From the IMG/VR virus record IMGVR_UViG_3300025325_000017: DNA of 64,000 bases; one strand, 5' to 3'. Positions 27,762 to 51,732 of the stretch are shown here, piece after piece. The notes beneath the pieces were generated by a model. The model did not search any database. It was not told the DNA's origin and saw only the letters and a program-made list of their open reading frames with translations. Made by a program: the position numbers and the translations under genes. The stretch is from an uncultured virus (IMG/VR IMGVR_UViG_3300025325_000017) (lineage: Duplodnaviria > Heunggongvirae > Uroviricota > Caudoviricetes). The first letter of the stretch is position 1; each line of letters opens with the position of its first letter.

Positions 27762-27775
27762 CATTTGAATCTCTG

Positions 27776-28009
27776 TTAGGGCGCATTCGCGGCCTCTGAC
27801 ATCGCTGTATCAATCGCGGCTCGAATTGATTCCCCGTGCCCTTGAAATACAATATCGCTGCCGAGCGAGCGGGCATACAGCGAACATCTATCCGGCCCGT
27901 GAATATGTATATCGGCAGGCTGGTAATAAGCAGGATTTTTCTTGTTCACGAACACCGTTCTGTTTCTGAGTGTTTCCAGAAAATCTATACGCTCTGAGTC
28001 TGTTGGCAT
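27776..28009 (-). CDS. Cassette-borne hypothetical protein
   Basis: TDSERIDFL...R.AID phage motif; TAA stop lies in the GTTAGGG core. Confidence 0.7.
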   Translation of the reverse strand: MPTDSERIDFLETLRNRTVFVNKKNPAYYQPADIHIHGPDRCSLYARSLGSDIVFQGHGESIRAAIDTAMSEAANAP

Positions 28010-28027
28010 GTCACAATCTCCGATGCG

Positions 28028-28085
28028 CCCTAACAAATCAATCCACGGGACCGGCTACGCCGGCCCGTGATCTCCGGCGTTAGGC
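28028..28085 (+). other. attC-like site (58 bp)
   Basis: CCCTAAC...ATC(C)ACGGG(A)CCGG-loop-CCGGCCCGTGAT...GTTAGGC with two extrahelical bases. Confidence 0.85.
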
Positions 28086-28112
28086 GGAATTCTGTCTAAT
28101 ACACTGTTATGC
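28084..28112 (+). other. attI-like site 1
   Basis: GCGGAATTCT-GTCTAAT-ACACT-GTTATGC; repeated at 33490 and, inverted, at 38899. Confidence 0.7.
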
Positions 28113-28370
28113 CCGCGCCCGCTTGTACACAGAAATGCGAAACTTATCGTCGGGGCATTTCTTCTGCCATTGTGGCAAATCCTGGATTTCCGAAACGCTT
28201 CGCTCAATTTGGGCGCTCGTCGTTGGTGCCCACAGTGAGTGAGCTTCTCCGTCTACATGCACATCACACCACATTTCAACAACATACAATTCTGGAGCGA
28301 ACGGGTATAACCTCGCCTTCAAAGCGGACTGGCCTCTGCGGCGTTTGGTTACTTTCTGGGGGTTAGTCAT
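28107..28370 (-). CDS. Cassette-borne hypothetical protein
   Basis: Paralog of 34338..34592; stop lies in the R box. Confidence 0.7.
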   Translation of the reverse strand: MTNPQKVTKRRRGQSALKARLYPFAPELYVVEMWCDVHVDGEAHSLWAPTTSAQIERSVSEIQDLPQWQKKCPDDKFRISVYKRARA

Positions 28371-28372
28371 TT
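28305..28372 (+). other. Half attC (left arm only)
   Basis: GTATAAC plus an arm homologous to 34527 onward; no right arm or GTT partner. Confidence 0.6.
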
Positions 28373-29058
28373 CTCTGCCTCAGCCTCTCGGCATAACCAG
28401 TAGTTCCAAGTGGGCACGATGCGTCAGCAATAAATTCTCGTTTGAGCGAGGCAACTTTGTCTCCCTGGAATTGCCAGGGCGGGTACAAAGCGATGATCCA
28501 CAGGCGATCACCCCTCCATTTTGGAGGATCCAGTGTTCCGTGGAGGGCATTTTTCGTGCAAATGGCGAGCGGCCCTGAAATTTCCTCGACAAGACCGACC
28601 CTCGCTTTTGTGCCGCCGCCGCCGTTGGCCGGAGTTCCGTCTGCATGGGATCGCCAGTACGCTAAGATCGCTCCGGCTTTCTCCGCTGCTGGGGCGAACC
28701 TGGGTAGCGTTCGCATCCAATAGACAATACTTTCGCTATTGTCGCCGTCGCCGCCGCCGTCGCCGTCGCCGTAGCTGTGGCCGTAGTCGCCGCCGTAGCC
28801 GTAGCTGTGGCCGCCGCCGCCGTAGCCGCCGTCGCCGCCGCCGTAGCCGCCGTCGCCGTAGCCGCCGCCGCCGTAGCCGCCGTCGCCGTAGCCGTAGCCG
28901 TAGCCGTAGCCGCCGCCGTCGCCGTCGCCGTCGCCGTCGCCGTAGCCGTAGCCGCCGTCGCCGTCGCCGTAGCCGTAGCCGCCGCCGCCGCCGTCGCCGT
29001 CGCCGTCGCCGCACAACAACTCCATTTCCGAAGAAATACTTCCGCGTAATACGCGCAT
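28363..29058 (-). CDS. Gly/Tyr/Asp-repeat (GYGDG) phage protein
   Basis: Low-complexity tract 28741-29010; TAATG coupling to the upstream gene. Confidence 0.7.
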   Translation of the reverse strand: MRVLRGSISSEMELLCGDGDGDGGGGGYGYGDGDGGYGYGDGDGDGDGGGYGYGYGYGDGGYGGGGYGDGGYGGGDGGYGGGGHSYGYGGDYGHSYGDGDGGGDGDNSESIVYWMRTLPRFAPAAEKAGAILAYWRSHADGTPANGGGGTKARVGLVEEISGPLAICTKNALHGTLDPPKWRGDRLWIIALYPPWQFQGDKVASLKREFIADASCPLGTTGYAERLRQRND

Positions 29059-29333
29059 TACCAATGTCCCTTTTCCCAGGCCGCAACGGCAACCGGCGTA
29101 CATTCGGCGACGCACGAAATCCCCCGTAATTCTATGTCGGCAGGAGGACCGACTCTACAATCTTTTGTCGGTCCCGTCTCGGCCAAAGCTAAGAACCCCT
29201 TAATGCCGCGCCAGTAGATACAATTGCGGGCTCGGCTTAGCTTAATAGTCTCTCCGTCAGTGTTGCCCGCATAACCGAAAAATACGCCACGATGCACAGT
29301 TGTCACGAGCACTGCACGATGTTTCTTTGCCAT
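29058..29333 (-). CDS. DUF6948-like protein
   Basis: VTTVHRGVFFGY, LAETGP; usual partner of GYGDG proteins. Confidence 0.65.
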   Translation of the reverse strand: MAKKHRAVLVTTVHRGVFFGYAGNTDGETIKLSRARNCIYWRGIKGFLALAETGPTKDCRVGPPADIELRGISCVAECTPVAVAAWEKGHW

Positions 29334-29602
29334 ATTACTATCTCCTTTTACCTGTTGGTTTTCGGTTGCGCCGATTAAGGCGGCGTCCGGATGCTCGTAG
29401 CCAAAGGTGGCCCTAAACCAAGCGCGGTCTCTCTTCAACAACTATTATCTTTCCGCACTTGTGGCAAGCACACTCAACATCCCCGTCTGGCCGCCGACGT
29501 AGATCTACATCGTAATAACAAACATGGGAACACAAAATAGAGCGCAGCCACCTACTCATAGCCTGACACCGATTCGTTTCAAATTTCTTGTTTCGGAGCA
29601 TG

Positions 29603-29842
29603 TTAATAGTCTCGTGAAGCTGTTGATGTCCAGTATTGCCCGATGACAATAACTGGTCGCGCGTGCTCGTGTTCGTCCACTTTTGTTTCAAGCTCCTGTA
29701 ATTTGCAGCCGACGAAATAAAGCGCCTCACGCAAATCTGAAACAGTCTTGGCTTCATTTATGGTGTCCCATACCGGGATGCTGCGCTTGCCTGAAAATAT
29801 CGTATTCATGTTCATCTTCATTCCCCTATCTCGAATATTCAA
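29603..29842 (-). CDS. Hypothetical protein
   Basis: ORF in the leftward operon. Confidence 0.4.
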   Translation of the reverse strand: MNIRDRGMKMNMNTIFSGKRSIPVWDTINEAKTVSDLREALYFVGCKLQELETKVDEHEHARPVIVIGQYWTSTASRDY

Positions 29843-30483
29843 ATCCTCGCAATAGCCTTGATCCGCGCGCGACGATTGCGGATTTGCTCCACGTACCCTG
29901 ATTCACCGCCGCTGTATCTATGTTGCGCCCGCGCGACTGATCTGAAAGCCTGTAGATGCCGGGACATATACCGCGCTCCCGCCTCCAAGCTAGCCTCGAT
30001 ATGGAATCGCTGGCTCCAATCCAGCCCGAGAGAACGCGCGGTAGCCGGCATGATCTGAGCCAACCCTGCCGCGCCTGCACGACTGATTGCGTATGGGTCA
30101 AAGTGCGATTCTTGCTCGATCTGCGCCGCCCACCAGGTCACATCCAGCCCATGAGCTTCGGCGGAGACCACCAGGGCGCGGGCGATGCGCGACGCCGGGA
30201 CACGAGGATTTACGCCAGCGACATATCGGGTCAGTCGTTCAATTGTCTGCTCGCGCTTGGCGTCCGCAAGTTCGGCGGCGAGACTGATCGCCAGATCAAC
30301 TGACTTCTCGGCGGTATCGGAGGCTTGCTGTGCCAGTCCGTGAGCGGCGAAATATTCACCACGCAGAAAGCCAATCTCACGATCACGCTCCAGGACCACG
30401 GTATAGAGCAACGCCATGCCGAAAACAGCGCCTATCGCGGCGTGGATCACCGCGTCGCGCAAGCCGTGTTTGTTCGGCGTCAT
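29839..30483 (-). CDS. Membrane-anchored lytic transglycosylase (SLT domain)
   Basis: QESHFDP.AIS.AGAAGLAQIMP; N-terminal TM segment. Confidence 0.85.
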   Translation of the reverse strand: MTPNKHGLRDAVIHAAIGAVFGMALLYTVVLERDREIGFLRGEYFAAHGLAQQASDTAEKSVDLAISLAAELADAKREQTIERLTRYVAGVNPRVPASRIARALVVSAEAHGLDVTWWAAQIEQESHFDPYAISRAGAAGLAQIMPATARSLGLDWSQRFHIEASLEAGARYMSRHLQAFRSVARAQHRYSGGESGYVEQIRNRRARIKAIARI

Positions 30484-30502
30484 TTGTGTGTCCCAGGTGT
30501 TA

Positions 30503-31156
30503 TTAAAATCTCCATCCCAGCACGATCACATTCGTTTGCCCTACCCCCGCCATGTAGCCGTTACCCCCAAAACGTCCACCGATGTCGGTAATGTAGGTAT
30601 ATAATCCAAATGATAGATTTTCTCTCCGCGCACCTACGCCTACCATCCATCCAAAGCCATGCAGCGTCTCATCGTATGTGTATCCATCGTCTTTCCACAG
30701 GGCGAAAGACTGTCTGAATCTACCCGCGCCAAGCTCCACGAAGGCATGCTGGCCGAATACGCGCGAGATCAGAAAGGCGCGCATGGAGCCAGTGGTGTGA
30801 TAAAAATCAATGGGCCCCGGGCAACTCTGCCCGCCTCCGGCAAGAATACAATCCTCGTTTTGAGAAGCGTAGCCGGCAAGCGAATAGACACCCAAATCGG
30901 CATACGAAAGTCTCCAACCATCGTGATCCAATCCGATTCTGAACATTGAGGGCTTCATGTTCCAATCCACCCCATAATCCGCGCATTCCTGATGCCACAA
31001 CCCGCATGGAGGCTTTTCGTATTTCGATTGCCCGATTTCGATGAAAGGCGTGGCGGCGCAGGCGTCCTTGACAAACAAAAATGCCGCCAGGATCAACGTC
31101 AACACGATCCAAAATGCGGTATAGGATTTGATTAACAATTTTGTATCTTCATCCAT
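30503..31156 (-). CDS. Outer-membrane beta-barrel-like exported protein
   Basis: Signal-like N-terminus; alternating beta strands; ends VLGWRF. Confidence 0.55.
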   Translation of the reverse strand: MDEDTKLLIKSYTAFWIVLTLILAAFLFVKDACAATPFIEIGQSKYEKPPCGLWHQECADYGVDWNMKPSMFRIGLDHDGWRLSYADLGVYSLAGYASQNEDCILAGGGQSCPGPIDFYHTTGSMRAFLISRVFGQHAFVELGAGRFRQSFALWKDDGYTYDETLHGFGWMVGVGARRENLSFGLYTYITDIGGRFGGNGYMAGVGQTNVIVLGWRF

Positions 31157-31165
31157 TTCAGTCTC

Positions 31166-31465
31166 CTACGGTCGGTTATAAGCGCGCAATACACCTTTTG
31201 CTTCATCTCGTTCGGCGACATATTCCAACAATAGACCAAGCCAAGCTCTTAGCGGCCAGTCGGGGTTGTATGTACGAAAATCTTCCAAACTTTTATACCC
31301 CGTTGCTTCCAGATATTGCGTTTCTGTTACCCGGAAACGTCTCAGCCAGCGCCTCATGTTTTCATTCGTGGGCTCCGTCCTCCAGTTAGGCAACCTGACG
31401 TAAAAACGCCTTGCAAGACTTACCCATGTCTCGTTGTCAACAAATTGGTTTCGTAGCGTGTCCAT
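31166..31465 (-). CDS. Hypothetical protein
   Basis: ORF in the leftward operon. Confidence 0.5.
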   Translation of the reverse strand: MDTLRNQFVDNETWVSLARRFYVRLPNWRTEPTNENMRRWLRRFRVTETQYLEATGYKSLEDFRTYNPDWPLRAWLGLLLEYVAERDEAKGVLRAYNRP

Positions 31466-31658
31466 TCTCAAGTAGGGGTGCTGAACGCTGTAACTATGGC
31501 ACTTAGGCTTAGTCGAGTCAAGTTTTAGGCTAACCTGATCTTGCCCGACGCTAGTTGCCTCAGGCGCAATCGCCTGACACGCGCAAGCGGTAGCCACATG
31601 ATGCGCGCGCATAATTTACGTCCTCGCGCGCGAACTACGATTTTGACGGCGTTGGGGT

Positions 31659-32432
31659 TCATGTTTTCTCCAGATATTTTTTGTCCAGTTGCCAGTAAGC
31701 AAGTAGTAATCGGAACTTTTCAAATCCAGTATCGAGTAACGATTGGTCCCATTCGTGGACACGGGTCAGGCCGGGGTTATTGACTGAAATAAATATATTT
31801 ATTCCCCTGGCGTCGAGTGGCATTCCAAGCCCCGCACGATAAGCGGCCAATTGCATGCATTGTTCCGGCCAAGCAAGGTTATCGCTGGTTTCGGAAAATT
31901 CCTTGGTTTTGAAATCAATCACCATCTTGTCGTTATGCAAATCCACCTTCCCCCCGTAACCCAAGGGCGAAGCAAACGATCTTTCGCTATGCCATCCATC
32001 GCCTAATTTTTTCAGTTCCTCCAATACGGCGGTAACAAATTTTTCATGGGCAGGGTTAAAATCCTTGTGTTGCAAAGCACGATCTATCGAGCCATGAATT
32101 GCAGACCCTTCCTCGGCTCTTTTTCGTGACTGTTCCTTGGCGTCCCGCGTGACTCGAACCGCGAAATCATCCAATGTTTCGTCCGGATTCATAGGAAGCG
32201 TCAAGGCCGCCAAAATCGCCTGCCGCAGTTTCCATTTTTCTAAGCCCGGCTTGGACAGAAGAGAAATAATCATCGTCACGCTGGGGAACAACCCCAAACG
32301 GCGGGCATCGCGTAGCGTAGTCGGGCGCTCCGGTTTATCCCCAACACGGATTGTGTACATCGGAGAGCCGTCAGGCATATACCAGTGGCCCGATTCAACG
32401 GCAAATTCCTTCTTGAGTTCGTTCATGGTCAA
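31659..32432 (-). CDS. PD-(D/E)XK exonuclease-like protein
   Basis: PSVT, GSAIH, GGKVDL..IDFKT, QLAAY. Confidence 0.85.
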   Translation of the reverse strand: MTMNELKKEFAVESGHWYMPDGSPMYTIRVGDKPERPTTLRDARRLGLFPSVTMIISLLSKPGLEKWKLRQAILAALTLPMNPDETLDDFAVRVTRDAKEQSRKRAEEGSAIHGSIDRALQHKDFNPAHEKFVTAVLEELKKLGDGWHSERSFASPLGYGGKVDLHNDKMVIDFKTKEFSETSDNLAWPEQCMQLAAYRAGLGMPLDARGINIFISVNNPGLTRVHEWDQSLLDTGFEKFRLLLAYWQLDKKYLEKT

Positions 32433-32815
32433 AATGGAATTCCGTCATCGAACGGGAGCGGTTCTTTATTCTGTTCCGGTTGCTGTTGTGTGCCGGGTCG
32501 CGGCGCGCGGCAACGAATACCGCCCACGAGCTTGCCGCCGAAAGACACGTTATCGTCTTCGTAGATAACAATCTTTTTGCCCTTCCATTCGTCTGTTTCT
32601 TCGGTATCGAGAGCCTTAGCAATAAGCTGGATATTGGTCCAGTTCAGGACCATGCCCTTCGAGAACTCATGAAAGTGGATGACCCACTTCATTTCCGGCG
32701 GCTGATCCTCCATCGCAACGTTGGCCTGCTCGATGTCGGCAATGGTCACCAGTTTGCCGGTACCAACGTCTTCTTTTTTCAGGTACTTCGATTCGCGCAT
32801 CGTGCCAATTTTCAT
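32429..32815 (-). CDS. Single-stranded DNA-binding-like protein
   Basis: SKYLK...LNWTN...GGIR; acidic FDDGIPF tail. Confidence 0.7.
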   Translation of the reverse strand: MKIGTMRESKYLKKEDVGTGKLVTIADIEQANVAMEDQPPEMKWVIHFHEFSKGMVLNWTNIQLIAKALDTEETDEWKGKKIVIYEDDNVSFGGKLVGGIRCRAPRPGTQQQPEQNKEPLPFDDGIPF

Positions 32816-33033
32816 TTCGTGCTCCTTTTTCAGTTTGGGTTTAAGTGCGTCTCAAGTTCAATCTTCGTCAGTTCACAATCTCCTCATAATTGATTCCACA
32901 CTCGAAACATAAATGTTTAAATTCCTCAGTCACCCCGGAATGTTTGATCGCAGCATAGACTTTACGCAAACATTCAAAGGTATAATGTTCCCGTTCTTCA
33001 AGATCGCGCCGTTGTTCCTCGTTCCAATCCGTT

Positions 33034-33345
33034 TCACCCATCATTTCTTTCATCTGCGACCTCCTTTTCTGCTTGTCGAAAAGCATAATCCGCCAAGTAG
33101 TCCTTGACGAGCCCAACCAACAGCGCGCCGACGTAAGCATTATCTATTTTGAGACTGTCGGCGATTTCAGACATCTCTTTTCTGTCGCGGCCATAAGCCC
33201 AGGTAACTGCCTGAGAGACGATGTAAGCGTCAATGTGTCGCAGATTCAGTGCATAGATTTCATCCGCGCGGCCGGTAATGTCCTGTCGGTTCTCAGATTC
33301 CACGTCATAGATCGGATGTGCTTCCATAAGATTCTCCTTGTTCAA
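33034..33345 (-). CDS. Hypothetical protein
   Basis: ORF with an AAGGAG SD near the start. Confidence 0.5.
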   Translation of the reverse strand: MNKENLMEAHPIYDVESENRQDITGRADEIYALNLRHIDAYIVSQAVTWAYGRDRKEMSEIADSLKIDNAYVGALLVGLVKDYLADYAFRQAEKEVADERNDG

Positions 33346-33472
33346 AGATTCTCGCCACCCTCCGACGAGACACCCAATAAGGGCGGAGCTTCGGGAAGAC
33401 CCCAGGAACGCTGCTCATCACGTCGAATTTTAGTCGCCTCCGAGACAACTCATAGTACCGTTCGTCGGCTGA

Positions 33473-34033
33473 TTATTGCCGTTCATCATGCGGAATTCTG
33501 TCTAATACACTGTTAGGAGGCTCAAGAATGAATGCAGCAACGTGTCGCCCCGTTCCATTGCCCTTGGATCCGTCCTCCGTAGCCAACCATTTCACATCCC
33601 CAAGGTTCCGAACCTCGGCCCCTGCCGCCAAGAGCATCAATACCCATTTGTCAATCGGGTACACCAAAACCACCCGCTTGCCCTTGCTGTTTTCCTGAAT
33701 CGCTTTCCTTGCCCATGCTGTTGGACCCTTCTTCTTGCCTTCGTGCAAAATTGATCCAAATGGGGGGTTCACATAGTTCGAGGATCCCCACTCGCAAGTG
33801 AGTCCGTCAAACTCCTCTGGCTTCGGGTAAGGGCAAGGGTCAAAGTCAAAAGCAAACTCTGCCTGTAGGGGTGCCAGAACTTCTGGTGGGGTCAGCCAAT
33901 AGTGTTTACCGTCGTCGCCGTTACCCTGGTGGAACTTGTTGTCGTGAGGGTGCAAGCGCCTCCTAACAACGTGCTCCACCTGACCGGCTACGTCGGCGGA
34001 CCTTGCTGTCTCTATGGTTTCGTCTGGCTTCAT
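33473..34033 (-). CDS. Phage Dam-type DNA N6-adenine methyltransferase (cassette-borne)
   Basis: WLTPPE, FDFDPCP, YVNPPF. Confidence 0.8.
   Translation of the reverse strand: MKPDETIETARSADVAGQVEHVVRRRLHPHDNKFHQGNGDDGKHYWLTPPEVLAPLQAEFAFDFDPCPYPKPEEFDGLTCEWGSSNYVNPPFGSILHEGKKKGPTAWARKAIQENSKGKRVVLVYPIDKWVLMLLAAGAEVRNLGDVKWLATEDGSKGNGTGRHVAAFILEPPNSVLDRIPHDERQ
33490..33518 (+). other. attI-like site 2
   Basis: GCGGAATTCT-GTCTAAT-ACACT-GTTAGGA. Confidence 0.7.
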
Positions 34034-34081
34034 TGTTTCTCGTGCTCTTTGTCCGCCGTCAGGTGAGCTTGGCCGTTAGCC
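33961..34081 (+). other. attC-like site (121 bp)
   Basis: TCCTAAC..GCTC(C)ACCTGAC(C)GG / CCGTCAGGTGAGC..GTTAGCC. Confidence 0.85.
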
Positions 34082-34320
34082 GTCAACTTCCGCAAGCACT
34101 TCCGGCAAGTGATTTCTGTTCCTATGTGCGACGACCATCCGGCGCTTCTGCGCCCTGGCTTAGCCCCGCACATTGCCGCCCAGTGCCCATTATGGATCGC
34201 ATGCCAAAGCGCACCGCTATCTCGCTCTGCACCGTTCGCACATCGTCCTGACAATCTCATGGCTAACACGTCGCTGGAGCCGACGGTTTTGTCAGCGGAC
34301 TCCTGTTTGTCATTTTGCAT
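34030..34320 (-). CDS. Cassette-borne small Cys/His protein
   Basis: H..C..CxxC; start and stop both lie inside attC loops. Confidence 0.65.
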   Translation of the reverse strand: MQNDKQESADKTVGSSDVLAMRLSGRCANGAERDSGALWHAIHNGHWAAMCGAKPGRRSAGWSSHIGTEITCRKCLRKLTANGQAHLTADKEHEKQ

Positions 34321-34343
34321 CGCGGCTCACCTCTGCGTTATAC
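34261..34343 (+). other. attC-like site (83 bp)
   Basis: GGCTAAC..GCTG(G)AGCCG(A)CG / CGCGGCTCACC..GTTATAC. Confidence 0.8.
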
Positions 34344-34592
34344 CGCTTCATATCTCTTGATCCGAAATTTATCCTGTGGGTTCCTGTTGCTCCATTCTTT
34401 CTTCCTGGCTTTTGCTGAGGGCCAATCAAGTGCAATACCTACGGTAGGCCCCCACCCCGTATACCAGCCTTTCTCGCCACGAACATCGGCATATAACTCA
34501 ACTATAAACACTCGTGGGAGTTCTCGGTATAACACCGCCTTTGAGGCGGACTGGCCTCGGCGGCGCTTAGTTGCTTTCTTTGGCTTGGTCAT
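34338..34592 (-). CDS. Cassette-borne hypothetical protein
   Basis: Paralog of 28107..28370. Confidence 0.7.
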   Translation of the reverse strand: MTKPKKATKRRRGQSASKAVLYRELPRVFIVELYADVRGEKGWYTGWGPTVGIALDWPSAKARKKEWSNRNPQDKFRIKRYEAV

Positions 34593-34646
34593 TTCTCAGT
34601 CTCCTTTGTTTCTTTCCCCGGCCAGCCGCTCAAGGCGGCGTTAGAT
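34527..34646 (+). other. attC-like site (120 bp)
   Basis: GTATAAC..TTGA(G)GCGG(A)CTGGCC / GGCCAGCCGCTCAA..GTTAGAT. Confidence 0.8.
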
Positions 34647-34852
34647 GGCAAGAACCCCATCTGTTCCGGTATTCCTACGCAGGTCAGTAATCTCACGGCG
34701 CCGTCGCGCCACATAACAAAATAAAAATCATCTTGTCCATGGAGCAATCCGATGAAAATATGCTCTTTGCCTTCTTCATCGAGATACTTGTTCCCTATCA
34801 GGGGGTCGTATTCCTCAACCAGTTTTGTCCAATTGTCATTTGCGTATGTCAT
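34589..34852 (-). CDS. Cassette-borne hypothetical protein
   Basis: Reads through the R box into the attC arm. Confidence 0.65.
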   Translation of the reverse strand: MTYANDNWTKLVEEYDPLIGNKYLDEEGKEHIFIGLLHGQDDFYFVMWRDGAVRLLTCVGIPEQMGFLPSNAALSGWPGKETKETEK

Positions 34853-34888
34853 CTGACATCACCTTGAACCGGACGCGGATTACGCCGC
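34851..34888 (+). other. Degenerate attC (R'' AAC>GAC, right arm lost)
   Basis: GTCATCTGAC matches 8/10 of the complement of cassette start GTTAGATGGC; then TTGAACCGGACGCGG..CCGC. Confidence 0.5.
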
Positions 34889-34997
34889 CTCTCGAATAAT
34901 CTCGCCCACATATTCCTGTTCGTTTTCATCGAAAACGTAAATTTTATGAAAGTCGTCCTCGCAGCAGCTATAGACTATGCGATAAATCGGGCTGACT

Positions 34998-35204
34998 TCA
35001 GCCTGATACACGTCGCGCTCGTCGTATTGGTGAAGATACATCGTTTTTCCTGATTCCGAGTCTTTGTCTAGCGCCCATAATCCGATCGGTCTGAGATTGC
35101 GGGAGTATGTTGGGCCACATGTAAATAGCGTGTCGTCCTACCCCGAGTGCGGCGGCTAGGGCTTTAACCGAGCCAAACAGGGCTATTGCTTGCTGTTTTG
35201 TCAT
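34998..35204 (-). CDS. Cro-like HTH regulator
   Basis: AIALFGSVKALAAALGV..AIYMW. Confidence 0.8.
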   Translation of the reverse strand: MTKQQAIALFGSVKALAAALGVGRHAIYMWPNILPQSQTDRIMGARQRLGIRKNDVSSPIRRARRVSG

Positions 35205-35210
35205 AAGCCG

Positions 35211-35239
35211 AAGATAAGCGCAATTACACCTATTGTCAA
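35211..35239 (-). promoter_or_regulatory. sigma70 promoter for a leaderless cro-like mRNA
   Basis: TTGACA-17-TATCTT, 6 nt before the ATG, no SD. Confidence 0.65.
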
Positions 35240-35328
35240 ATGTTTTACTTATTCGGAATGTCCTAGTTTAAGGTAGTGATTGTCGTGGGTATGATGTTTC
35301 CGAATGGGAATTGCTATCCTACCAGCCC

Positions 35329-35976
35329 ATGGCTTACCAAAGCGCTGTCTTTCGTAAGGGCAAATACCGCCAGAAAAGTGTGCGGGCGAGAATTCTGGCC
35401 TTCTTTCTAGATAACCTAGGGAGGGTGGCATTGCGGGAGCAGATACAGGAGGCTGCGCGAGATCCCAAGACCGGGAAAATTCCAGAAAACTGGCACCAGC
35501 GACTATCAGAACTGCGCACCGACCATGGCTACACGATCCTGTCGCAGCGAAACCGCGGCGACCTTAAGGTCATGGAATACCTAATGCTAAATGCCGATAA
35601 GCGGCCGAAGGCGAGGGGCCGCATTCAGCCGACTTCGGCGACGTGGAGGGCAGTCCTACTCAGGGCGGGCGGCGCGTGCGAGTGGAGGGACCATGGCGCC
35701 GTGCCGTGTGGCCTCGCGGACGGGGCCATTGATCCAATCGGAGGTGGCACCGTCAAGCTCACGCCAGACCACCTTACGCCACACGAAATTGACCCCGATT
35801 CGGACCCTACCGAGCCGGGCCACTGGCAAGCTCTTTGTGGGCGCCACCAAGTAATCAAGAAAAACTTCTGGGATGACCGCAGCGGTAACCTGAATGTCTA
35901 CGCCATCATTCAGGCTGCGTCAGAAGTTGATAAGCAGAAGGTTTACGAGTTTTTGAAGACTTACTTCGGAGACTAA
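35329..35976 (+). CDS. HNH type II restriction endonuclease, R.KpnI-like
   Basis: PENWHQRLSELRTD, IDPIGGGTVKLTPDH, WQALCGRHQV.KKN match R.KpnI as recalled. Confidence 0.8.
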   Translation: MAYQSAVFRKGKYRQKSVRARILAFFLDNLGRVALREQIQEAARDPKTGKIPENWHQRLSELRTDHGYTILSQRNRGDLKVMEYLMLNADKRPKARGRIQPTSATWRAVLLRAGGACEWRDHGAVPCGLADGAIDPIGGGTVKLTPDHLTPHEIDPDSDPTEPGHWQALCGRHQVIKKNFWDDRSGNLNVYAIIQAASEVDKQKVYEFLKTYFGD

Positions 35977-36691
35977 CGCGAGTCGTATTGAGGCGCTTTT
36001 CGGTAATTTTCGTATAGTCTTCGGAGAGGTCCGAAAGGATCGCGTTGCGGCGGAGCGCCTTACAAGCGGCGCCGGTCGTGCCAGCCCCGCACATCGGGTC
36101 TAACACCGTGTCGCCCTCTACCGTCGTCATGAGGATGAGTGGCTCAATGGTCTTAATGGGTTTTTGTGAAGGATGGCCTGTTTGCTCAGCCCGCCCCACG
36201 AAGCCGATATTAAGTGGGACATTGAAAACACTTGGCGGGCCAGGCATGTAGCGGAGGGTCCCTGCCTTTTTTCGATCAAGTTGGGCCTCATTGAGAAAGT
36301 GCTCCGGATAGATACGCGCGCCAGTCTTCCCAAAGTGTAGGCAGGTATTTTGCGCTGATCTCCAGCCTTGAATAACTGACGGACAGTTCGGATAGTACCA
36401 TGTCAACCATGCCTTAAGATCGAAGCCTGGCGGGAGCCGATCAGCTTGTCGGTAGACGATCTCTGGGAAACCCCAGATGAATACATGTTCTGAAATGTCG
36501 GCGGCGGCGTGAATGAGTTTTGAAAGCCAGTCGTCGTAATCCGGTCTGGCACCACCGACGCCCTTGTTATACCAAGGGTCGAGGATCGTCGTCGTCACGC
36601 GCCTGCCGATAGTTGTAAGTGTTTCCAGCGCATCGGCTGGCGGGAGGATTTTGACCGAAGCGACGGCTCGGCGGTTAGGTGGCTTAGCCAT
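35906..36691 (-). CDS. Beta-class N6/N4 DNA methyltransferase
   Basis: DPWY, HPSQKP, VLDPMCGAGTT; convergent with the endonuclease. Confidence 0.88.
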   Translation of the reverse strand: MAKPPNRRAVASVKILPPADALETLTTIGRRVTTTILDPWYNKGVGGARPDYDDWLSKLIHAAADISEHVFIWGFPEIVYRQADRLPPGFDLKAWLTWYYPNCPSVIQGWRSAQNTCLHFGKTGARIYPEHFLNEAQLDRKKAGTLRYMPGPPSVFNVPLNIGFVGRAEQTGHPSQKPIKTIEPLILMTTVEGDTVLDPMCGAGTTGAACKALRRNAILSDLSEDYTKITEKRLNTTRVSLRSKSSKTRKPSAYQLLTQPE

Positions 36692-37598
36692 TGCGGTCCT
36701 CAGTATCTTCCAATGCGAGCGGAATCGTTTCATTTTTTTTTGGGAGCGCACGTTGCAATAATCGGTAAAAGTGTTCCCATGTTGCGCTTGCCCGCATAAG
36801 CGCAATAGTTGCATGTAGGTGTTGCGCTAGAGCCGGGTGTCCAACATCCTGAGTTAGCCACTGATGATGTTTTGCTGGACGATTACCTGTCTCGTTTTTC
36901 GGGTTACGGGATTTAAGCTCTTTTAGAATGCCTGGTGCTAATCGTTCGTAAACAATATCATTGGTGTAACGCCCGACTACACTAGGGCGGTTTATTTTCA
37001 TCCCCTGCCACTGCCAATTTTTGAGCCTGAAAATCTGCTCATAAAATTCATCAGGGAATTGGCGCGCCCAAGCCGCTAGTTCTTTCCTAAGATAGCGGTT
37101 AAGGATTGCCTCAAGTGCTCTCCTGTCCCGTATCTCTTGATAGCCGGTTGCCTCATCAACCAATGCAATAATTCCGACATGGGCGAAGCCGCGAATGAGC
37201 AAGTTCGCCATATCCGCAAAGCGCTTTTGATTGGTACGAAGTACACCGGCCTTTTCAGCATCGAGGATGACTTCGCAAATCTGTGGAAGTAGCTTCGCGT
37301 CGTAACCGAAGGCTGTGCGCCCCCCGTGTTTTGCGCGATAAGGAATTGGAGAGTTCAGGCGCACCATTAACTCATTGGAAATAAAAGAACTTATGCTTTT
37401 CGACGCCAAAAATGACGGGATATTGGGCGCGCCGATTCCGGATGATTCTGGGGTGCCAGTTCTACGTGAACCAATAGCTTTGCTAACGCCGCGTGTGGAC
37501 AAAACACGGGTGCCATCCTCAAGAACAGCGCATGGAATAACACGTCCCGCAACCTTAAGGTCACCATCATGTGTGGCTCGCAGGATTTTAGCATTCAT
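36684..37598 (-). CDS. P63C domain protein
   Basis: IPCAVLEDGTRV, GIIALVDEATGYQ, KHHQWLT. Confidence 0.88.
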   Translation of the reverse strand: MNAKILRATHDGDLKVAGRVIPCAVLEDGTRVLSTRGVSKAIGSRRTGTPESSGIGAPNIPSFLASKSISSFISNELMVRLNSPIPYRAKHGGRTAFGYDAKLLPQICEVILDAEKAGVLRTNQKRFADMANLLIRGFAHVGIIALVDEATGYQEIRDRRALEAILNRYLRKELAAWARQFPDEFYEQIFRLKNWQWQGMKINRPSVVGRYTNDIVYERLAPGILKELKSRNPKNETGNRPAKHHQWLTQDVGHPALAQHLHATIALMRASATWEHFYRLLQRALPKKNETIPLALEDTEDRNG

Positions 37599-38482
37599 AT
37601 GCTTGCTCCTACTGCGCGAGCAATTGTCAGGCCGAAGAGATCAGCGGTTGTGCGGTGATTGAACCGGTAGCAAAACTCATTCAGGTATTGCGGGAGGTGG
37701 CGCACGCTGACCTTGTGGTACTGGCCGACGATCCCACGCTTGAGAAGCGCCCAAAACGACTCAATGCCGTTAGTGTGAATATCGCCATTCACATACCAAA
37801 GCTGGTGATTGATGGTCTTATGTGGCATGAAGTATTTGATGCCAAGATAGCCTTTGTATTCGTCAGTAATGAGCACGGCATTTTGAACATCTACATGTTC
37901 GCGTACTAATGCGGAGAGGGATTTCGCCTTAAGCTTATCCTTACGAACAACCCTTGCTTTTACGTTCCCACCGCGCTGGATCATTCCGACAACCGGGGTT
38001 TTCCTGGTGCCGCGTCCGCGCTTCGGCGCTCCGCCGCCACCGCCTTTGCGGGGCTTGCCGCCGACATAGGTTTCGTCCATTTCGACTACACCTTGGAGTA
38101 GTTGACGTTGCGCGCCTTCGGCCATTGCTTTACGTATCTGCATACCCATGCGCCAAGCCGTACTCTTATTAACTTCGAGATCGCGGGCAAGTTGACGAGC
38201 GGAAATGCCTTTCTTGGCATTCAGGATTAACGAAACTGCAAGGAACCATTTTTGAAGCGGTAAGTGCGTATGATGAAAGATAGTTCGTATGGTCACGCTA
38301 AAAGTGGTCTTACAGGCATTGCAGTGGTGCCGTTGTTCTTTCGGCATTGGCGTGGAATTACCGACCACGCTACAATATGGACAAAATGGCTTACCCTGCC
38401 AGCGCACAGTCTCAAGATGGGCGATGCAATCCGCCTCGGTCGGGAACAGTTTATAGACTTGGATGATGTTCATTGTCTGCAC
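37595..38482 (-). CDS. IS1595-family transposase
   Basis: Zn ribbon; VEMDETYVGG; TDEY; HTNGIESFW; YLNEFCYRFN. Confidence 0.95.
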   Translation of the reverse strand: MQTMNIIQVYKLFPTEADCIAHLETVRWQGKPFCPYCSVVGNSTPMPKEQRHHCNACKTTFSVTIRTIFHHTHLPLQKWFLAVSLILNAKKGISARQLARDLEVNKSTAWRMGMQIRKAMAEGAQRQLLQGVVEMDETYVGGKPRKGGGGGAPKRGRGTRKTPVVGMIQRGGNVKARVVRKDKLKAKSLSALVREHVDVQNAVLITDEYKGYLGIKYFMPHKTINHQLWYVNGDIHTNGIESFWALLKRGIVGQYHKVSVRHLPQYLNEFCYRFNHRTTADLFGLTIARAVGASI

Positions 38483-38508
38483 CTTTCATCACTACCATTA
38501 CAGCAGAC

Positions 38509-38537
38509 AGTATAAACCCTTTGTTTCTGTTTGTCAA
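38509..38537 (-). promoter_or_regulatory. Promoter of the transposase-P63C-MTase operon
   Basis: TTGACA-17-TATACT abutting the TIR. Confidence 0.65.
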
Positions 38538-38571
38538 CTACCTTAAACTAGGACATTCCGAATTAGTTTAC

Positions 38572-38689
38572 CATTAACGCAGAGCGCGGCCACAGGAGGA
38601 AAAGATGAGCACCGCTGACGAAGATCATGCTTGCCAAGCGACTCCGCACTCTGAGTTGATGGCGCAGTTGCTGGAGCGCAGTGTTAGAA
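38572..38689 (-). other. attC-like site, inverted, with imperfect L boxes
   Basis: Minus strand TTCTAAC-ACTGC-GCTC(C)AGC ... GCCGCGC-TCTGC-GTTAATG. Confidence 0.6.
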
Positions 38690-38700
38690 CTGGAGGATGA

Positions 38701-38904
38701 ATGAGATTGAAAATGACTATAGACGAATGTATGGCCTTTGCGGACGAGTGGAGCCGTGGCATGACACTGCATGAAGATTCACAAGGTTGGCGGGTGGTTT
38801 GCATGTTACTGGCCGAGGAAGTGAAAACCCTGCGAAAAGGCGAATACATTTGCCGGAAATGTGGGCTACGCAAAGATGACGAACATGAGCGTGGTGAGTT
38901 CTAA
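38701..38904 (+). CDS. Cassette-borne small Zn-ribbon protein
   Basis: CRKCG; TAA stop in the R box of attI-like site 3. Confidence 0.65.
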   Translation: MRLKMTIDECMAFADEWSRGMTLHEDSQGWRVVCMLLAEEVKTLRKGEYICRKCGLRKDDEHERGEF

Positions 38905-38927
38905 CAGTGTATTAGACGGAATTCCGC
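38899..38927 (-). other. attI-like site 3 (inverted)
   Basis: Minus strand GCGGAATTCC-GTCTAAT-ACACT-GTTAGAA. Confidence 0.7.
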
Positions 38928-45494: not shown

Positions 45495-47513
45495 ATGGAA
45501 TTGACGGCTCGCTTGCGTTCTCTTTCGATGGGGAAAGTGATTTCCTACTGGGACCTTGTGGAGGAGGAAGGAAGAAAGACGAATAAACTACCGCAAGCGG
45601 TAAGGTTCTTGTGTCTGTCGGATTTGTTTTATCTGCTGGTTCGGGTTTGTGGCCGGAAGGATATGTTGAATGACTTCGCTTTTAGCCGGGTCAGGGAGAT
45701 TGAGAAGGGGCCGGATGGTTATTTGGATCTTTGGTCCCGGGAGCATTATAAGGACCTAGCTGATTACACGCCAATGCTTACGGCAAATCGCGGTTGGACA
45801 ACGCACGGCGAATTGAAGATTGGTGACCGGGTTTTCGCTCCGAGCGGCAAGGACGTTCCGGTCATTGCGCTTTCGGACAGATACACGACATCGGAATGTT
45901 ACGAAATTACGTTCAGCGACGGTGCCAGGATCGTGGCCGGGGCGGGGCACCTGTGGAGATTGCGCCGCAAGATCAGGCGCCGCGTTGCAAACAACGATTT
46001 GGTTGAATTCGAGGAATACATTGCGAGCACCGCCGATATGATTGCAATCGGTGGAAGGCTGGACGTTGGGACAAGCGCCCCACTGGAGTTTGCCAGGGCG
46101 AATCTTTCCATTGATCCGTATTTACTCGATCGTGTGGTGCAGAAGATCGAGCGAGTACCTTCTGTGCCAACTCGCTGCATCCAAGTGGTTGGTGGGATGT
46201 ACGTCGCCGGCCGTGAATTGGTCCCGACGCATAACAGCTCGATAATCACGTTTGGGCTGACCATTCAAGATATTCTGAAAGACCCTGAAATCACTTTCGG
46301 GATTTTCAGTCATACTCGGCCCATAGCCAAGGCTTTTCTCAGACAGATCATGCGCGAACTGGAGACCAATAGGGTTTTGCAGGGAGCTTTCCCGGATATT
46401 CTGTGGGGGGAGAATTTGAAGGAATCTCCGAAGTGGGCGGAAGACGATGGAATCATCGTCAGGAGGAAATCCAATCCGAACGAGGCGACGGTCGAGGCCT
46501 GGGGGTTGGTCGACGGACAGCCGGTATCCAAACATTTCAAGGTGTTGCTGTATGACGACATCGTGGTGCAGGCGTCGGTCAGCACTCCGGAGATGATCTC
46601 CAAAACCATGTCTCGCCTGGAGGAGTCGTATTCGCTTGGAACGGCTACCGGAAAAAGAAGATTCGCCGGCACCCGCTGGCACTTCAACGACGCCTACGGG
46701 ACCATTGCGGAACGAAAAACCGCCGTTGTGCGGGAGCATCCCGGACGTATCGGGGGGACGGAAGACGGCGAATCGGTGTTCTGGACGGAAGATGTACACC
46801 GTCGGAAAAGACGGGACATGGGACCATATGTATATAGCGCGCAGGTTCTTCTACGACCGAAGGCCGACGCCTTGCAGGGGTTCAAGCGGGAATGGTTGAG
46901 AACTTATCAAACGATCAAGATGGAGGAATTGAATTGGTATCTTCTTTTCGACGCCGCCAATTCAAAGAAACGATCTAGTGATTACACGGCGGGTTGGGCC
47001 GTCGGGCTGGGACGGGATGAAAATTATTATTGTATCCCCATCGTCCGGGACCGATTGAATCTCAAGGAACGCGGCGACAGGGTTTTCGAGGCCCACAGAA
47101 AATACAAACCGAAACAGGTGCGTTATGAAAAATATGGCATGATGGCGGACATAGAACATCTTCATTCACGCATGGAGTATGAAAACTATCGCTTTGGAAT
47201 CACGGAAGTCGGCGGCCAGACATCCAAATCGGATCGCATCAAGCGCCTGATCCCGCTATTCGTGGCCGGGAGAATCTGGCTGCCGGAATCCATGTATGTC
47301 ACCAATTGGGAGCGCACTCCGATTGATCTGGTGCGATCCTTCATCGAGGAGGAATACATGGCGTTTCCGGTGGGGATGCACGAAGACGGGCTGGATTCGC
47401 TGTCTCGCATCTGCGAACCCGACCTGACCCTGATCTGGCCGATGGAAAAAAAGAAAGAAACAGGCAGACAATCTCCCAGTTACAACAATCAACACGTCGG
47501 TTGGATGGGATAA
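45495..47513 (+). CDS. terL: Terminase large subunit (module B) with intein
   Basis: REHYK/S Walker A split by a Hint domain; LLYDD; GTRW; HEDGLDSL. Confidence 0.9.
   Translation: MELTARLRSLSMGKVISYWDLVEEEGRKTNKLPQAVRFLCLSDLFYLLVRVCGRKDMLNDFAFSRVREIEKGPDGYLDLWSREHYKDLADYTPMLTANRGWTTHGELKIGDRVFAPSGKDVPVIALSDRYTTSECYEITFSDGARIVAGAGHLWRLRRKIRRRVANNDLVEFEEYIASTADMIAIGGRLDVGTSAPLEFARANLSIDPYLLDRVVQKIERVPSVPTRCIQVVGGMYVAGRELVPTHNSSIITFGLTIQDILKDPEITFGIFSHTRPIAKAFLRQIMRELETNRVLQGAFPDILWGENLKESPKWAEDDGIIVRRKSNPNEATVEAWGLVDGQPVSKHFKVLLYDDIVVQASVSTPEMISKTMSRLEESYSLGTATGKRRFAGTRWHFNDAYGTIAERKTAVVREHPGRIGGTEDGESVFWTEDVHRRKRRDMGPYVYSAQVLLRPKADALQGFKREWLRTYQTIKMEELNWYLLFDAANSKKRSSDYTAGWAVGLGRDENYYCIPIVRDRLNLKERGDRVFEAHRKYKPKQVRYEKYGMMADIEHLHSRMEYENYRFGITEVGGQTSKSDRIKRLIPLFVAGRIWLPESMYVTNWERTPIDLVRSFIEEEYMAFPVGMHEDGLDSLSRICEPDLTLIWPMEKKKETGRQSPSYNNQHVGWMG
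45753..46235 (+). mobile_element. Class 3 mini-intein (161 aa)
   Basis: Starts with Asp; GELKIGDRV, HLW, TRCIQV, PTHN/S. Confidence 0.85.
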
Positions 47514-49783
47514 TGGAAGAAGAAGATTTCCTGAAACTTGTTCGTGACCGATACAGCCGTTGTGTCGAGGCCGACAGGGAGAATCACGCGCGGGCGCGGG
47601 AGGCTCTCGATTTCCGCGATCTCAAGCAATGGGATGAACAGGTTAGAGCGGAGCGCGAAAACGACCCGGAGGGGAAAAGACCGTGCCTTGTCGTTGATAA
47701 GCTCAATCAACACATCATGCAGGTTGTCAACGACGGACGGCAAAATCGTCCACAGATCAAGGTCAGACCCGTTGACGATGGCGGGGACATCGAGGTCGCC
47801 AGAATTTACGACGGAATATTGAGACACATCCAGGACAGGTCGAGGGCGGATGTTGCTTATGACACGGCCTTTGAATGCGCGGTGGACGGCGGTTTCGGGT
47901 TTTGGAGAATCCTGACGGAGTACAGCGATCCGAAATCCTTTGATCAGGAAATCAAGATCAAGCGAATAAGAAACAGGTTTTCCACCTATTTGTCTCCGGA
48001 AAGACAGGAGCCGGACGGCTCTGACGCGGAATACGGTTTCATTCTTTACAAAGTCCCGAAGAAAGACTTCGAGGTTGAATTCGGCGTGAAAGGCAAGGAC
48101 GCCCTTCAGGGATTCGAGACCGAGGGAAAAGAATTCACCGAATGGTATGGCGGTGACTGGGTTATCTACGCGGAATATTTCTGGAAAGAACGAACGAAAA
48201 TAAAGATCGTTCTTCTGGAAGACGGGTCAATAGGGGAAGAACACGAATTTCCCGGAGCCCCCATCAAGGCTGAACGTGAAAGCGAGAAGATAAAAATTCG
48301 CTGGAGAAAGCTGACCGCCACGAAAATCCTCGAAGATGGGGAATGGATAGGAGACTCCATTCCCATCTATGAGGTCATCGGTAACGAACTGGATGTCGAA
48401 GGCAAAATCTTGCGTTCCGGCCTTATCCGGCCGGCGATGGACGCGCAACGGGCAGATAATTACGCGGTTTCGGCCTTCATTGAAAACGTCGCCTTAGCTC
48501 CGAGGGCGTCCTATGTCGCCGCCGTCGGGCAGGTGGAGGATAACGCCGATTTATGGAAGTCCGCGAATCGAAGAAACATCTCGGTTCTTCCGTATAAGCC
48601 CGTCTCCGTGGACGGCGTTCTGGTCGGCGCGCCACGGCGTGAAGCACCTCCCGGAGTCAGTACCGGATGGCTGTCCGTTATGGAGCAGTCGGAACACAAT
48701 ATCCAGGCTTCGATGGGGCGCTATAACGCGACTCTTGGGGCGCCGTCGAATGAGACTTCCGGCAAGGCCATTCAGGCTAGAAACCGCGAGGGGGATACCG
48801 GAAGTTTCCATTTTTCGGATAATTTTGCGAGAACCCTCCGGAGAACCGGGCAGGACATCGTTGACATCATTCCGAAGATTTACGATACCAAGAAAATCGC
48901 CCGCATCATCGGCGAGGACGGTGAATTGAGCAACGCCATGATTGATTCGAGTCTCGCGGACGAAAACGGGAATCCAGTCCCTTCCGCTGAAAAATCCATC
49001 AACGGAAAGATTCAAAAAATCTATAATCTCGGAGTCGGAAAATATGACGTGACGATAGTCGCCGGTCCCTCCTACACGACCCGAAGACTCGAATCCGCCG
49101 ATGCCATGATGGAGATTTCTCGTGGGAACAAGGAATTCATGTCGCAATTCGGAGATATTATCTTCAAGGCTCAGGATTGGCCGGGCGCGGAGAAGATTTC
49201 CGAGCGATTCAAAAAAATGCTTCCTCCGGAATTGAAAGACGAAGAACCGAATAATCTGGAAAAACAAAAAGGGCAAATTCAGCAGGCGACTCAAATGCTG
49301 GGACAAAAAGAGGCGGAAATAAACAACGCTATGCAACAGATTCAAGAACAGTCCCAAATGATCGCGGGGCAAGAACAACAGTCTCGGGAAGCGGAGCAAA
49401 AAGCAAAAGACGCGATGTCCAGGGTCCAGCAAGAGGTTGAGAAATTGAATACGATCATGGCTTCAATCGAAAATGAAAAATCCCTGTTCGCGCTGCAAAA
49501 GAAACTTGCGGAAAAAGAATTCGAAATCAAATCCGCCACGCTGGAATCCGAAAAAGAAATCGCGGCTGCGGAAGCCAATTTACTGAAGGCGCAACTGGAC
49601 GCCAAACTGAAGGAAATAAACGATCTTCAAAAAGAATCGCTGGAAAACACGCAGTCCGCTGAAACCATCCAAAAAGCAGTTCTGGAAGCCCTGGATAGAG
49701 TAGCTCAGGTCGTGACGGCCCCCCGCCGGCTGATTTATGACGAGGCCGGTAATCCGGTGGCTTCCGAGTCCACGTTGAACTGA
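47513..49783 (+). CDS. Portal protein (P22-like)
   Basis: RPCLVVDKL, SGKAI, GPSYTTRR. Confidence 0.9.
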   Translation: MEEEDFLKLVRDRYSRCVEADRENHARAREALDFRDLKQWDEQVRAERENDPEGKRPCLVVDKLNQHIMQVVNDGRQNRPQIKVRPVDDGGDIEVARIYDGILRHIQDRSRADVAYDTAFECAVDGGFGFWRILTEYSDPKSFDQEIKIKRIRNRFSTYLSPERQEPDGSDAEYGFILYKVPKKDFEVEFGVKGKDALQGFETEGKEFTEWYGGDWVIYAEYFWKERTKIKIVLLEDGSIGEEHEFPGAPIKAERESEKIKIRWRKLTATKILEDGEWIGDSIPIYEVIGNELDVEGKILRSGLIRPAMDAQRADNYAVSAFIENVALAPRASYVAAVGQVEDNADLWKSANRRNISVLPYKPVSVDGVLVGAPRREAPPGVSTGWLSVMEQSEHNIQASMGRYNATLGAPSNETSGKAIQARNREGDTGSFHFSDNFARTLRRTGQDIVDIIPKIYDTKKIARIIGEDGELSNAMIDSSLADENGNPVPSAEKSINGKIQKIYNLGVGKYDVTIVAGPSYTTRRLESADAMMEISRGNKEFMSQFGDIIFKAQDWPGAEKISERFKKMLPPELKDEEPNNLEKQKGQIQQATQMLGQKEAEINNAMQQIQEQSQMIAGQEQQSREAEQKAKDAMSRVQQEVEKLNTIMASIENEKSLFALQKKLAEKEFEIKSATLESEKEIAAAEANLLKAQLDAKLKEINDLQKESLENTQSAETIQKAVLEALDRVAQVVTAPRRLIYDEAGNPVASESTLN

Positions 49784-49784
49784 A

Positions 49785-51473: not shown

Positions 51474-51483
51474 GGAATAGCGA

Positions 51484-51732
51484 ATGAAACTACAACTGAT
51501 TGGAACGACCCTCCTGAAAAAGAAAGGAGTGCCTTTATATAGGATGGCAAAATATCTTTTCCTGAACGCAGATCATGTGGAGCCGATGGAGTTCAGTCAT
51601 CCACCGGAAATGACCGAAGAGGAGATTATTAAAGATATTCCGCAGATGCTAGCTAAGATCATAGAGCATCATGCGAATTTGATTGCCGATGGTTATAAAT
51701 GGCACGTCTACGAACAGAAATGGCATAAGTAA
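51484..51732 (+). CDS. Hypothetical protein found only in module B (start uncertain)
   Basis: No counterpart between the module A paralogs. Confidence 0.45.
   Translation: MKLQLIGTTLLKKKGVPLYRMAKYLFLNADHVEPMEFSHPPEMTEEEIIKDIPQMLAKIIEHHANLIADGYKWHVYEQKWHK

Follow-up and report, generated by a model that had tools for sequence, protein, structure and literature searches.

Integrons are known as the gene banks of bacteria, and recent work has found that many of their cassettes are anti-phage defences. Sedentary chromosomal integrons combine the integrase IntI, its attI site and homogeneous arrays of attC sites. Clusters of attC sites lacking an integrase (CALINs) are reportedly defined, by Cury et al. 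in 2016 and in the IntegronFinder papers, by at least two attC sites close together with no intI nearby. In T4-type phages (promoter-early stem-loop, PeSL, modules) and at lambdoid boundary sequences, short conserved elements lie between small early genes, and the modules are swapped by homologous recombination. Phage genomes also carry CALINs, that is, attC-bounded cassettes without intI, and IntI1 recombined five of six tested phage attC sites (Qi, Rajabal, Ghaly, Tetu and Gillings, Front Microbiol 2023, PMC9892861); the same paper further describes a Shewanella prophage CALIN with its own attI and DNA methyltransferases among phage CALIN cargo. Loot and colleagues reportedly describe IntI-catalysed cassette insertion outside att sites (bioRxiv 10.1101/2022.09.11.507474).

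Here we describe integron-type arrays in a 64,000-nucleotide stretch of DNA from an uncultured virus (IMG/VR record IMGVR_UViG_3300025325_000017), referred to below as the window. An initial reading of the letters, here called the original prediction, had proposed an integron-like cassette system without an integrase in a phage early region. Our analysis indicates, with a probability of roughly 0.7, that three integron-type arrays lie in the divergent early operons of an integrase-less lambdoid/P22-like phage and would be worked in trans by the IntI of the host. Each of these small arrays (27775-28400, 33490-34886 and 38572-38927) appears to start at an orphan attI-type site; a cassette would consist of one small gene plus an attC-type folded site, with G/TT as the recombination point. 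The relatives used for comparison are metagenome assemblies throughout, and their contigs, viral records and bacterial loci are labelled L002 and so on.

Like the published phage CALINs, these arrays are attC-bounded cassettes in phages without intI and include DNA methyltransferase cargo. Unlike them, as far as the accessible text of PMC9892861 goes, they lie in intact-looking phages (a relative is 96% complete), have three orphan attI sites and form three arrays inside early operons. Their genes are systematically antisense, and the words 'antisense' and 'opposite' are absent from that text; moreover, their attC subtype is common to viral contigs with unrelated flanks, and G/TT exchange is visible between relatives. 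With sedentary chromosomal integrons they share the attI core (found beside IntI in L017), the attC family (found in the L054 array), G/TT boundaries, complementarity of each cassette's own ends, extra bases on one arm and one small gene per cassette. They differ in having no intI and no Pc-type arrangement, in genes that face attI rather than away from it, and in short arrays (1-4 cassettes) within phage operons. IntI insertion outside att sites is likewise a route for cassettes into integron-free replicons, but here bona fide attI-type sites rather than arbitrary secondary ones are present. The PeSL and lambdoid boundary sequences are also short conserved elements marking module swap points, but lack the G/TT core, the own-end complementarity and bacterial attI/attC homologues. 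Novelty, which the original prediction had left to a literature search, is smaller than first hoped because phage CALINs and IntI1-recombined phage attC sites are already published (PMC9892861). We found nothing in the literature on orphan attI in integrase-less phages, a phage subtype of a bacterial attC family or systematic antisense cassettes, and a string search for the attI core sequence found no paper.

The array starts were recognised by a 26-nt repeat that occurs three times in the window (28084, 33490 and, inverted with one mismatch, 38902) and in none of 100 shuffles:

28080..28109 (core 28084-28109), + strand: attI-type site 1, exact 26-nt repeat; predicted crossover G28106/T28107
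33490..33515, + strand: attI-type site 2, the attI end of the four-cassette array; predicted crossover G33512/T33513
38902..38927, - strand: attI-type site 3, inverted, in the rightward operon, 25/26 identical (inverted repeats I2 and I3); predicted crossover G38905

Site 1 lies directly 3' of the R' box of a hairpin at 28028-28085, and beyond 28109 contigs of other samples no longer match the window. At site 2, homology between the window and L002-L006 passes through the repeat and ends at 33517, after GTTAGG. Altogether, six different cassettes follow the core in phage contexts. The original prediction had called these repeats attI-like, and this was borne out in bacteria: a 22-nt core ending in G/TTA had exact matches in 12 bacterial contigs, from Gilvimarinus (five loci) and from metagenome-assembled genomes (MAGs) of Gammaproteobacteria, Pseudomonadota, Ectothiorhodospiraceae, Acidiferrobacterales, Desulfobulbaceae and Chlorobiota, and to the right of GTTA the sequence is different in each of the 12 loci. 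In Gilvimarinus chinensis (L017), an intact integron integrase (TIGR02249, 394 bits, cut-off 265) is encoded 253 bp left of the core on the other strand, the classic intI-attI layout. In addition, a one-mismatch copy was found in an Acidiferrobacterales MAG, in a locus drawn around a split IntI; such copies occur in L046/L050. The bacterial copy thus has both marks of an attI, a position beside intI and variable cassettes after G/TT, and in the phage no intI is adjacent. In the bacterial copies, a direct repeat of the AGGCAGAATTC part lies upstream, and the phage version resembles the two bacterial repeats fused into a compact form.

Two further features of the bacterial loci were seen. In three Gilvimarinus loci (L014, L015 and L021), the intergenic DNA left of the core is conserved and the place of the integrase is occupied by another gene, namely a replication-type gene of an integrative and conjugative element, an IS3 transposase fragment or an ISL3 transposase; by this layout, loss of the integrase from attI-headed arrays would have occurred in bacteria as well. 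In the G. chinensis integron, the first attC (L017 8632-8754) is a long, nearly perfect palindrome in which one R''/R' pair, AGCCAAC/GTTGGCT, is nested within another, AGCTAAC/GTTAGCT.

Seven cassettes (C1 to C7) with attC-like sites A to G were delimited in the window, each listed here with its gene (an open reading frame, ORF) and the complementary pair formed by its own ends:

27775..28085, + strand: C1, attC site A 28028-28085 with R'' extension from 28023; antisense gene 27776-28036 (-), 86 aa, whose TAA stop is the TTA of the G/TTA core; own ends GTTAGGGCGCAT 27775 / ATGCGCCCTAAC 28023-28034, 12 nt
28106..28400, + strand: C2, broken attC (site B) with R''-like GGGTATAAC at 28303-28311 and the 3' half absent, direct repeat D4; antisense gene 28107-28370 (-), 87 aa; broken pair GTTATGCC(C) 28106 / GGGTATAAC 28303-28311
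33512..34081, + strand: C3, Dam-type DNA methyltransferase, antisense ORF 33473-34033; attC site C 33958-34081; own ends GTTAGGAGGC 33512 / GCCTCCTAAC 33958-33967, 10 nt
34075..34343, + strand: C4, antisense ORF 34030-34320, 96 aa; attC site D 34261-34343; own ends GTTAGCC 34075 / GGCTAAC 34261-34267, 7 nt
34337..34646, + strand: C5, antisense ORF 34338-34592, 84 aa, starting inside the attC loop; attC site E 34525-34646; own ends GTTATACCG 34337 / CGGTATAAC 34525-34533, 9 nt
34640..34886, + strand: C6, antisense ORF 34589-34852, 87 aa; short degenerate site F, right edge of the variable array; broken pair GTTAGATG 34640 / CATCTGAC 34850-34857
38572..38905, - strand: C7, inverted polarity; gene 38701-38904 (+), 67 aa, antisense to the site; attC-like site G 38572-38691; own ends GTTAGAACT 38683 / AGTTCTAAC 38897-38905, 9 nt

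On recheck, every coordinate and string that the original prediction had given for the seven attC-like sites and the three 26-nt repeats, and every complementarity it quoted, was correct. The core boxes R'' (RYYYAAC) and R' (GTTRRRY) are present at A, C, D, E and G. Site F consists of CATCTGAC at 34850-34857, 21 nt, and then ATTACGCC at 34879-34886. In site G, the weakest of the window sites, the best fold pairs CCATTAAC (38571-38578) with GTTGATGG (38655-38662) rather than with the outer R''.

The complementarity between the two ends of one and the same cassette was found to be far from random. In the early region and nine related viral loci, some of which share cassettes, there were 48 GTTR/YAAC pairs of at least 8 nt against 10.1 expected, and the signal comes from pairs of this kind that follow one another along the arrays. 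For the phage hairpin in eight distinct contexts, R'' matched a GTT within 2.5 kb on its left over at best 12, 9, 7, 12, 9, 14, 12 and 7 nt, compared with a mean of 6 nt for non-own pairs, where a single 13 came from an R'' common to the window and L002. In the whole hairpin family (48 contexts with enough flank), at least 9 nt were reached by 26 of 48 own pairs versus 45 of 2244 non-own pairs. Bacterial and phage subtypes behaved alike, and the bacterial set therefore serves as a positive control. Own-end complementarity is expected of attC sites, as the footprint of a circular intermediate cut at G/TT. These numbers bear on the idea that the hairpins serve regulation, as terminators or as signals for RNA processing or translation, and that the complementarities reflect chance or RNA structure. 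Gene starts and ribosome-binding sites do lie in or beside several hairpin loops, and window-wide GTT...AAC pairs of at least 7 nt were not enriched (106 versus 93 in shuffles). However, own and non-own pairs differ in a highly non-random way, a terminator scan of the region stayed at shuffle level (15 versus 14.0 sites), by which hairpins as terminators were rejected, and the sites have homologues among bacterial attI and attC sites. We consider this explanation close to refuted.

The folding of the sites was assessed as single-stranded DNA energy against shuffles, given as z-scores for the bottom and top strand. Site A (28024-28089) reached -3.0/-3.8, site C (33958-34084) -1.5/-1.9 and site E (34524-34650) -2.1/-1.0. 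Where the original prediction had counted five complete hairpins, three are thus convincing as hairpins (A, C and E) and two weak (D and G); the fold is clear for A and moderate for C and E. All three foldable sites have unpaired extra bases on the R''-side arm; at site A these are two, C and A on the top strand and G and T on the bottom strand. An extrahelical G and T are the canonical pair of attC sites. Site calls rest on structure and on a covariance model built here, not on the general attC model of IntegronFinder. A naive attC scanner (R''/R' at 6/7 plus fold energy) gave 28 mostly spurious matches in the window, among which only 28028-28085 was convincing, and it was dropped.

The hairpin at 28028-28085 belongs to a family that is shared with bacteria. 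Its 26-nt core was found at 21 viral loci (13 contigs), several of which resemble the window over no more than an element of about 55 nt, and a degenerate hairpin pattern occurs in at least 120 metagenome stretches. The family has two subtypes, a common bacterial one (CACGCG...CGCGTG) and a phage one (CACGGG...CCCGTG), distinguished by paired changes that affect position 5 of the stem as well as the outer stem. In the canonical R''-stem-R' shape, 61 distinct bacterial-type copies align as R''-AA-stem-TAC-stem-NNC-R', the R'' arm carrying two extra bases. The covariance model, made from these 61 copies only, scored 58-68 bits for all phage copies searched. A check against an attC model had been suggested by the original prediction, and our own model supported it in part: site A matched with 62.8 bits (E 2e-16) on the predicted + strand and 15.1 bits on the - strand, site C matched marginally (33961-34014, 17.7 bits, E 0.056), and sites D, E and G gave no match. 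Among 401 sampled genomes of the Gilvimarinus chinensis class, the bacterial subtype was present in two, and a reversed-pattern control gave one match. One of these two copies, in the array of L054, has a compensatory stem change and lies 6.9 kb from an IntI (488 bits), on the side toward which the array extends. The hairpin at 28028-28085 is, by its homology, an attC, and sequence comparison establishes that both attI and attC sites of the window are homologues of bacterial integron sites.

The cassette genes run against their sites. The original prediction of antisense genes held for six of the seven window cassettes by the best-fitting (longest) ORF, and for the seventh by paralogy. The C5 antisense frame is a real gene because its protein is 40% identical to that of C2 (E 3e-21 in the minus frame), the two being paralogues, and the plus, or sense, frames are unrelated. 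In four of the seven cassettes the TAA stop of the antisense gene is the TTA of the G/TTA core, and several cassette genes start inside the attC loop. Within the hairpin family, bacterial-type cassettes were sense in 20 of 20 cases, whereas four phage-type cassettes were antisense and two ambiguous; the bacterial members do not have the cassette design of a reversed gene with its stop in the G/TTA core and its start in the loop. The antisense orientation is genuine, and it is specific to the phage subtype.

DNA-modification genes, which would weaken host restriction, are plentiful in the cargo. Methyltransferases are represented by Dam (window), N6_N4 (L009), phrog_757 with an HNH protein (L026) and MT-A70 (L039), and other cargo includes Mom (L002), further HNH proteins and a protease. 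The C3 protein matched Dam (PF05869) with E 1e-5, below the Pfam cut-off, and phrog_111 with E 5e-15. In L005 (9262-9403), a tRNA-Trp (CCA) gene stands in cassette position, after the first part of the junction element that is also found at window site D.

Comparison with related phages revealed the exchange of cassettes. L002 comes from a 39.9-kb viral record (96% complete) and is about 87% identical to the window over conserved early genes. Between attI site 2 and a conserved gene at 34881, where L002 homology restarts, the window has four cassettes and L002 three unrelated ones with own-end complementarity of 9, 8 and 6 nt. Relatives thus carry different cassettes between the same flanks. 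Contigs of four other metagenome runs part from the window at 28028/28030, 28082/28085, 28109 and 34887; at 34887, the right edge of C6, contigs of two runs do so. The C6 cassette in L005 terminates with an intact GTTACGCC. The site D element of C4 is conserved in L005, L006 and L043, where another gene body follows GTTAG, and in these three the module order is permuted. One cassette (GTTAGCCCTCT...) is preceded by attI in L002 and by the hairpin attC in L043; the identity of the two begins at GTTAGCCC, and nothing beyond those few bases (GTTAG) is shared upstream, which is too little for an assembly artefact or homologous exchange. On the aligned sequences, cassette differences between the related phages begin exactly at G/TT, as the original prediction required of gene-content changes, at attI as well as at attC; this did not extend to every difference between the window and L002, as discussed below.

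These junctions also bear on whether the arrays are an inert relic, a captured piece of a bacterial integron with dead sites, in which differences arise by homologous recombination across att sequences of 26-58 nt, for example through the phage's own exonuclease/annealase genes (31659-32815). The operon has an exonuclease-like protein (phrog_298), attC cores identical over otherwise unrelated viral contigs would supply 50-60 nt of homology, several sites are degenerate, and two other breaks between the window and L002 are ordinary mosaic joints. By contrast, the attI/cassette and attC/cassette junctions of the one cassette share only GTTAG, and six different cassettes stand after the phage attI. 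Own-end complementarity is equally strong in phage-type and bacterial cassettes and would decay without circle formation, and antisense genes are a general trait of the phage subtype, implying long evolution in phages. We regard a relic as unlikely.

A Pfam scan of 86 window ORFs revealed no tyrosine recombinase, in agreement with the original prediction. In six-frame searches, PF00589 was absent from all nine related viral records, of which two are 95-96% complete and one has terminal repeats, and Resolvase and Y1_Tnp were absent from the five of these records searched for them. At the level of these profile searches, the phages carry no recognisable recombinase. A complete integron, with intI next to attI, is not present in the window; the four consecutive sites in 33958-34886, together with none of the searched recombinase families, correspond to a CALIN. 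Many early-operon proteins have no family match, and a phage-encoded recombinase of a family that profile searches miss would make the host unnecessary. This appears quite improbable: the families named above were absent even from the nearly complete records, the attI core is the same as beside bacterial IntI, and the hairpin is common to contigs with otherwise unrelated flanks.

Several observations weigh against arrays worked by a host IntI. Sites B and F are degenerate, B having no 3' half and F having mutated cores (GAC and ATTA). The folds of site D (34258-34346, z about 0 on both strands) and site G (38569-38692, z -1.4 on the + strand and +0.3 on the - strand) are not better than shuffles. 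IntI was not found beside the core in 10 of the 12 exact-match bacterial loci, some of which have an insertion sequence (IS) instead and others of which are on short contigs. The attI motif is absent from the IntI-linked locus that holds the attC relative, where there is another attI; the attI type and the hairpin attC type stem from different bacterial integrons. Two of the four breaks between the window and L002 in the leftward operon (30467/30502 and 32411/32860) are plain gene boundaries without a GTT/AAC mark, so ordinary mosaicism also acts there. A repeated 58-nt attC can mislead assemblers, which makes the module order in L005, L006 and L043 weaker evidence than the junction sequences. 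Finally, we infer host IntI as the acting enzyme from the sites, rather than from an observed enzyme, host or recombination event.

Under the proposed explanation, in which the phage probably uses the integron enzyme of its host to trade counter-defence genes, host IntI would act in trans on replicating phage DNA and insert circular cassettes at the phage attI sites, and attC x attC exchange by the same enzyme would excise or reshuffle cassettes. The attC would set the polarity of insertion, and the arrays would be transcribed from phage early promoters toward attI. With polarity fixed and transcription toward attI, only cassettes with a gene antisense to attC would be expressed, and selection could thereby produce a phage-adapted pool of 'backwards' cassettes. 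The intI genes are commonly under SOS control, which would fit activation during infection. Tentatively, and at somewhat less than even odds, we extend this to an integrase-less phage lineage with orphan attI sites in its early operons, served by a host IntI that is possibly induced by infection stress, and with a phage-only pool of backwards cassettes that would be a counter-defence gene bank mirroring the defence bank of bacterial integrons. The orientation would let phage promoters express the cassettes and would also place the attC bottom strand on the non-template strand, where early transcription might aid folding of the sites; that transcription exposes the recombinogenic strand is speculation.

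A group of phages of soil, sediment and groundwater thus appears to carry integron recombination sites without the enzyme, as the other side of the bacterial defence bank, with cargo leaning to DNA methyltransferases and Mom-type modification. If host IntI works the phage sites, a single recombination system would serve both phages and hosts in their arms race, phage infection would be a route for cassette traffic, and attI specificity could indicate which hosts uncultured phages infect. Direct assays are feasible with the sites and the candidate IntI as defined here.

The window has a GC content of 50% and is phage DNA; megablast found no near relative of it among GenBank phages, and it has no Rfam family match at the gathering threshold. 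Profile scans of the window ORFs outlined a leftward early operon on the minus strand (27776-35204), which further contains small ORFs, a Dam-type methyltransferase and an SLT transglycosylase, and the following features:

35211..35239, minus strand: promoter-like site TTGACA-17-TATCTT, 5' of the Cro-like gene, recognised by consensus match alone (10/12)
34998-35204, minus strand: Cro-like regulator, PF14549
31659-32432, minus strand: exonuclease-like gene, phrog_298
31659-32815: exonuclease/annealase genes of the leftward operon

The promoter-like site would drive the leftward operon through the cassettes toward attI site 2. The operon ends 14 bp from lysis and tail genes of a late module, a junction spanned by three independent viral contigs, each matching the window with 100% identity. 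The rightward operon begins at about 38606 and continues with NinB, NinG, Q-like genes, the large terminase and a P22-type portal.

Between the two divergent early operons, in their promoter region, lies an IS1595-family element (35239-38575) bounded by inverted repeats of 39 nt. It adjoins the R' box of site G; in L002 the same position is uninterrupted. The element encodes a transposase (37595-38482, -), a P63C-domain protein (36684-37598, -), an N6_N4 DNA methyltransferase (35906-36814, -) and a 221-aa ORF (35311-35976, +) without a family match. An apparent IS-less joint in run X6 (35276 to 38538) was set aside, as its short side has just 23 letters and falls within the IS inverted repeats.

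The early region is flanked by two unlike late modules (1-27761 and 45495-64000). A Terminase_6N/6C terminase and an untyped portal are encoded on the left, a P22-type portal and coat on the right. Window positions 1-606 appear similar to the Q-like region at about 41.6-42.1 kb, as judged from common matches to L002. The two modules may reflect an assembly path through two related phages with common early genes, or a tandem arrangement. A 250-aa ORF at 28363-29115 contains a long stretch of GCC/GTC/GTA repeats with a period of 9-15 nt, Gly/Asp/Tyr-rich on the minus strand; several independent assemblies terminate inside it, with contigs broken at 28735-29017. A block of sugar and modification genes (2792-9648), 5' of the left terminase, encodes a sialyltransferase-like glycosyltransferase, a DegT-family aminotransferase, a radical SAM/SPASM protein and a methyltransferase-like ORF, and an HNH/His-Me homing-endonuclease-like gene (59446-60048) lies within the right late module.

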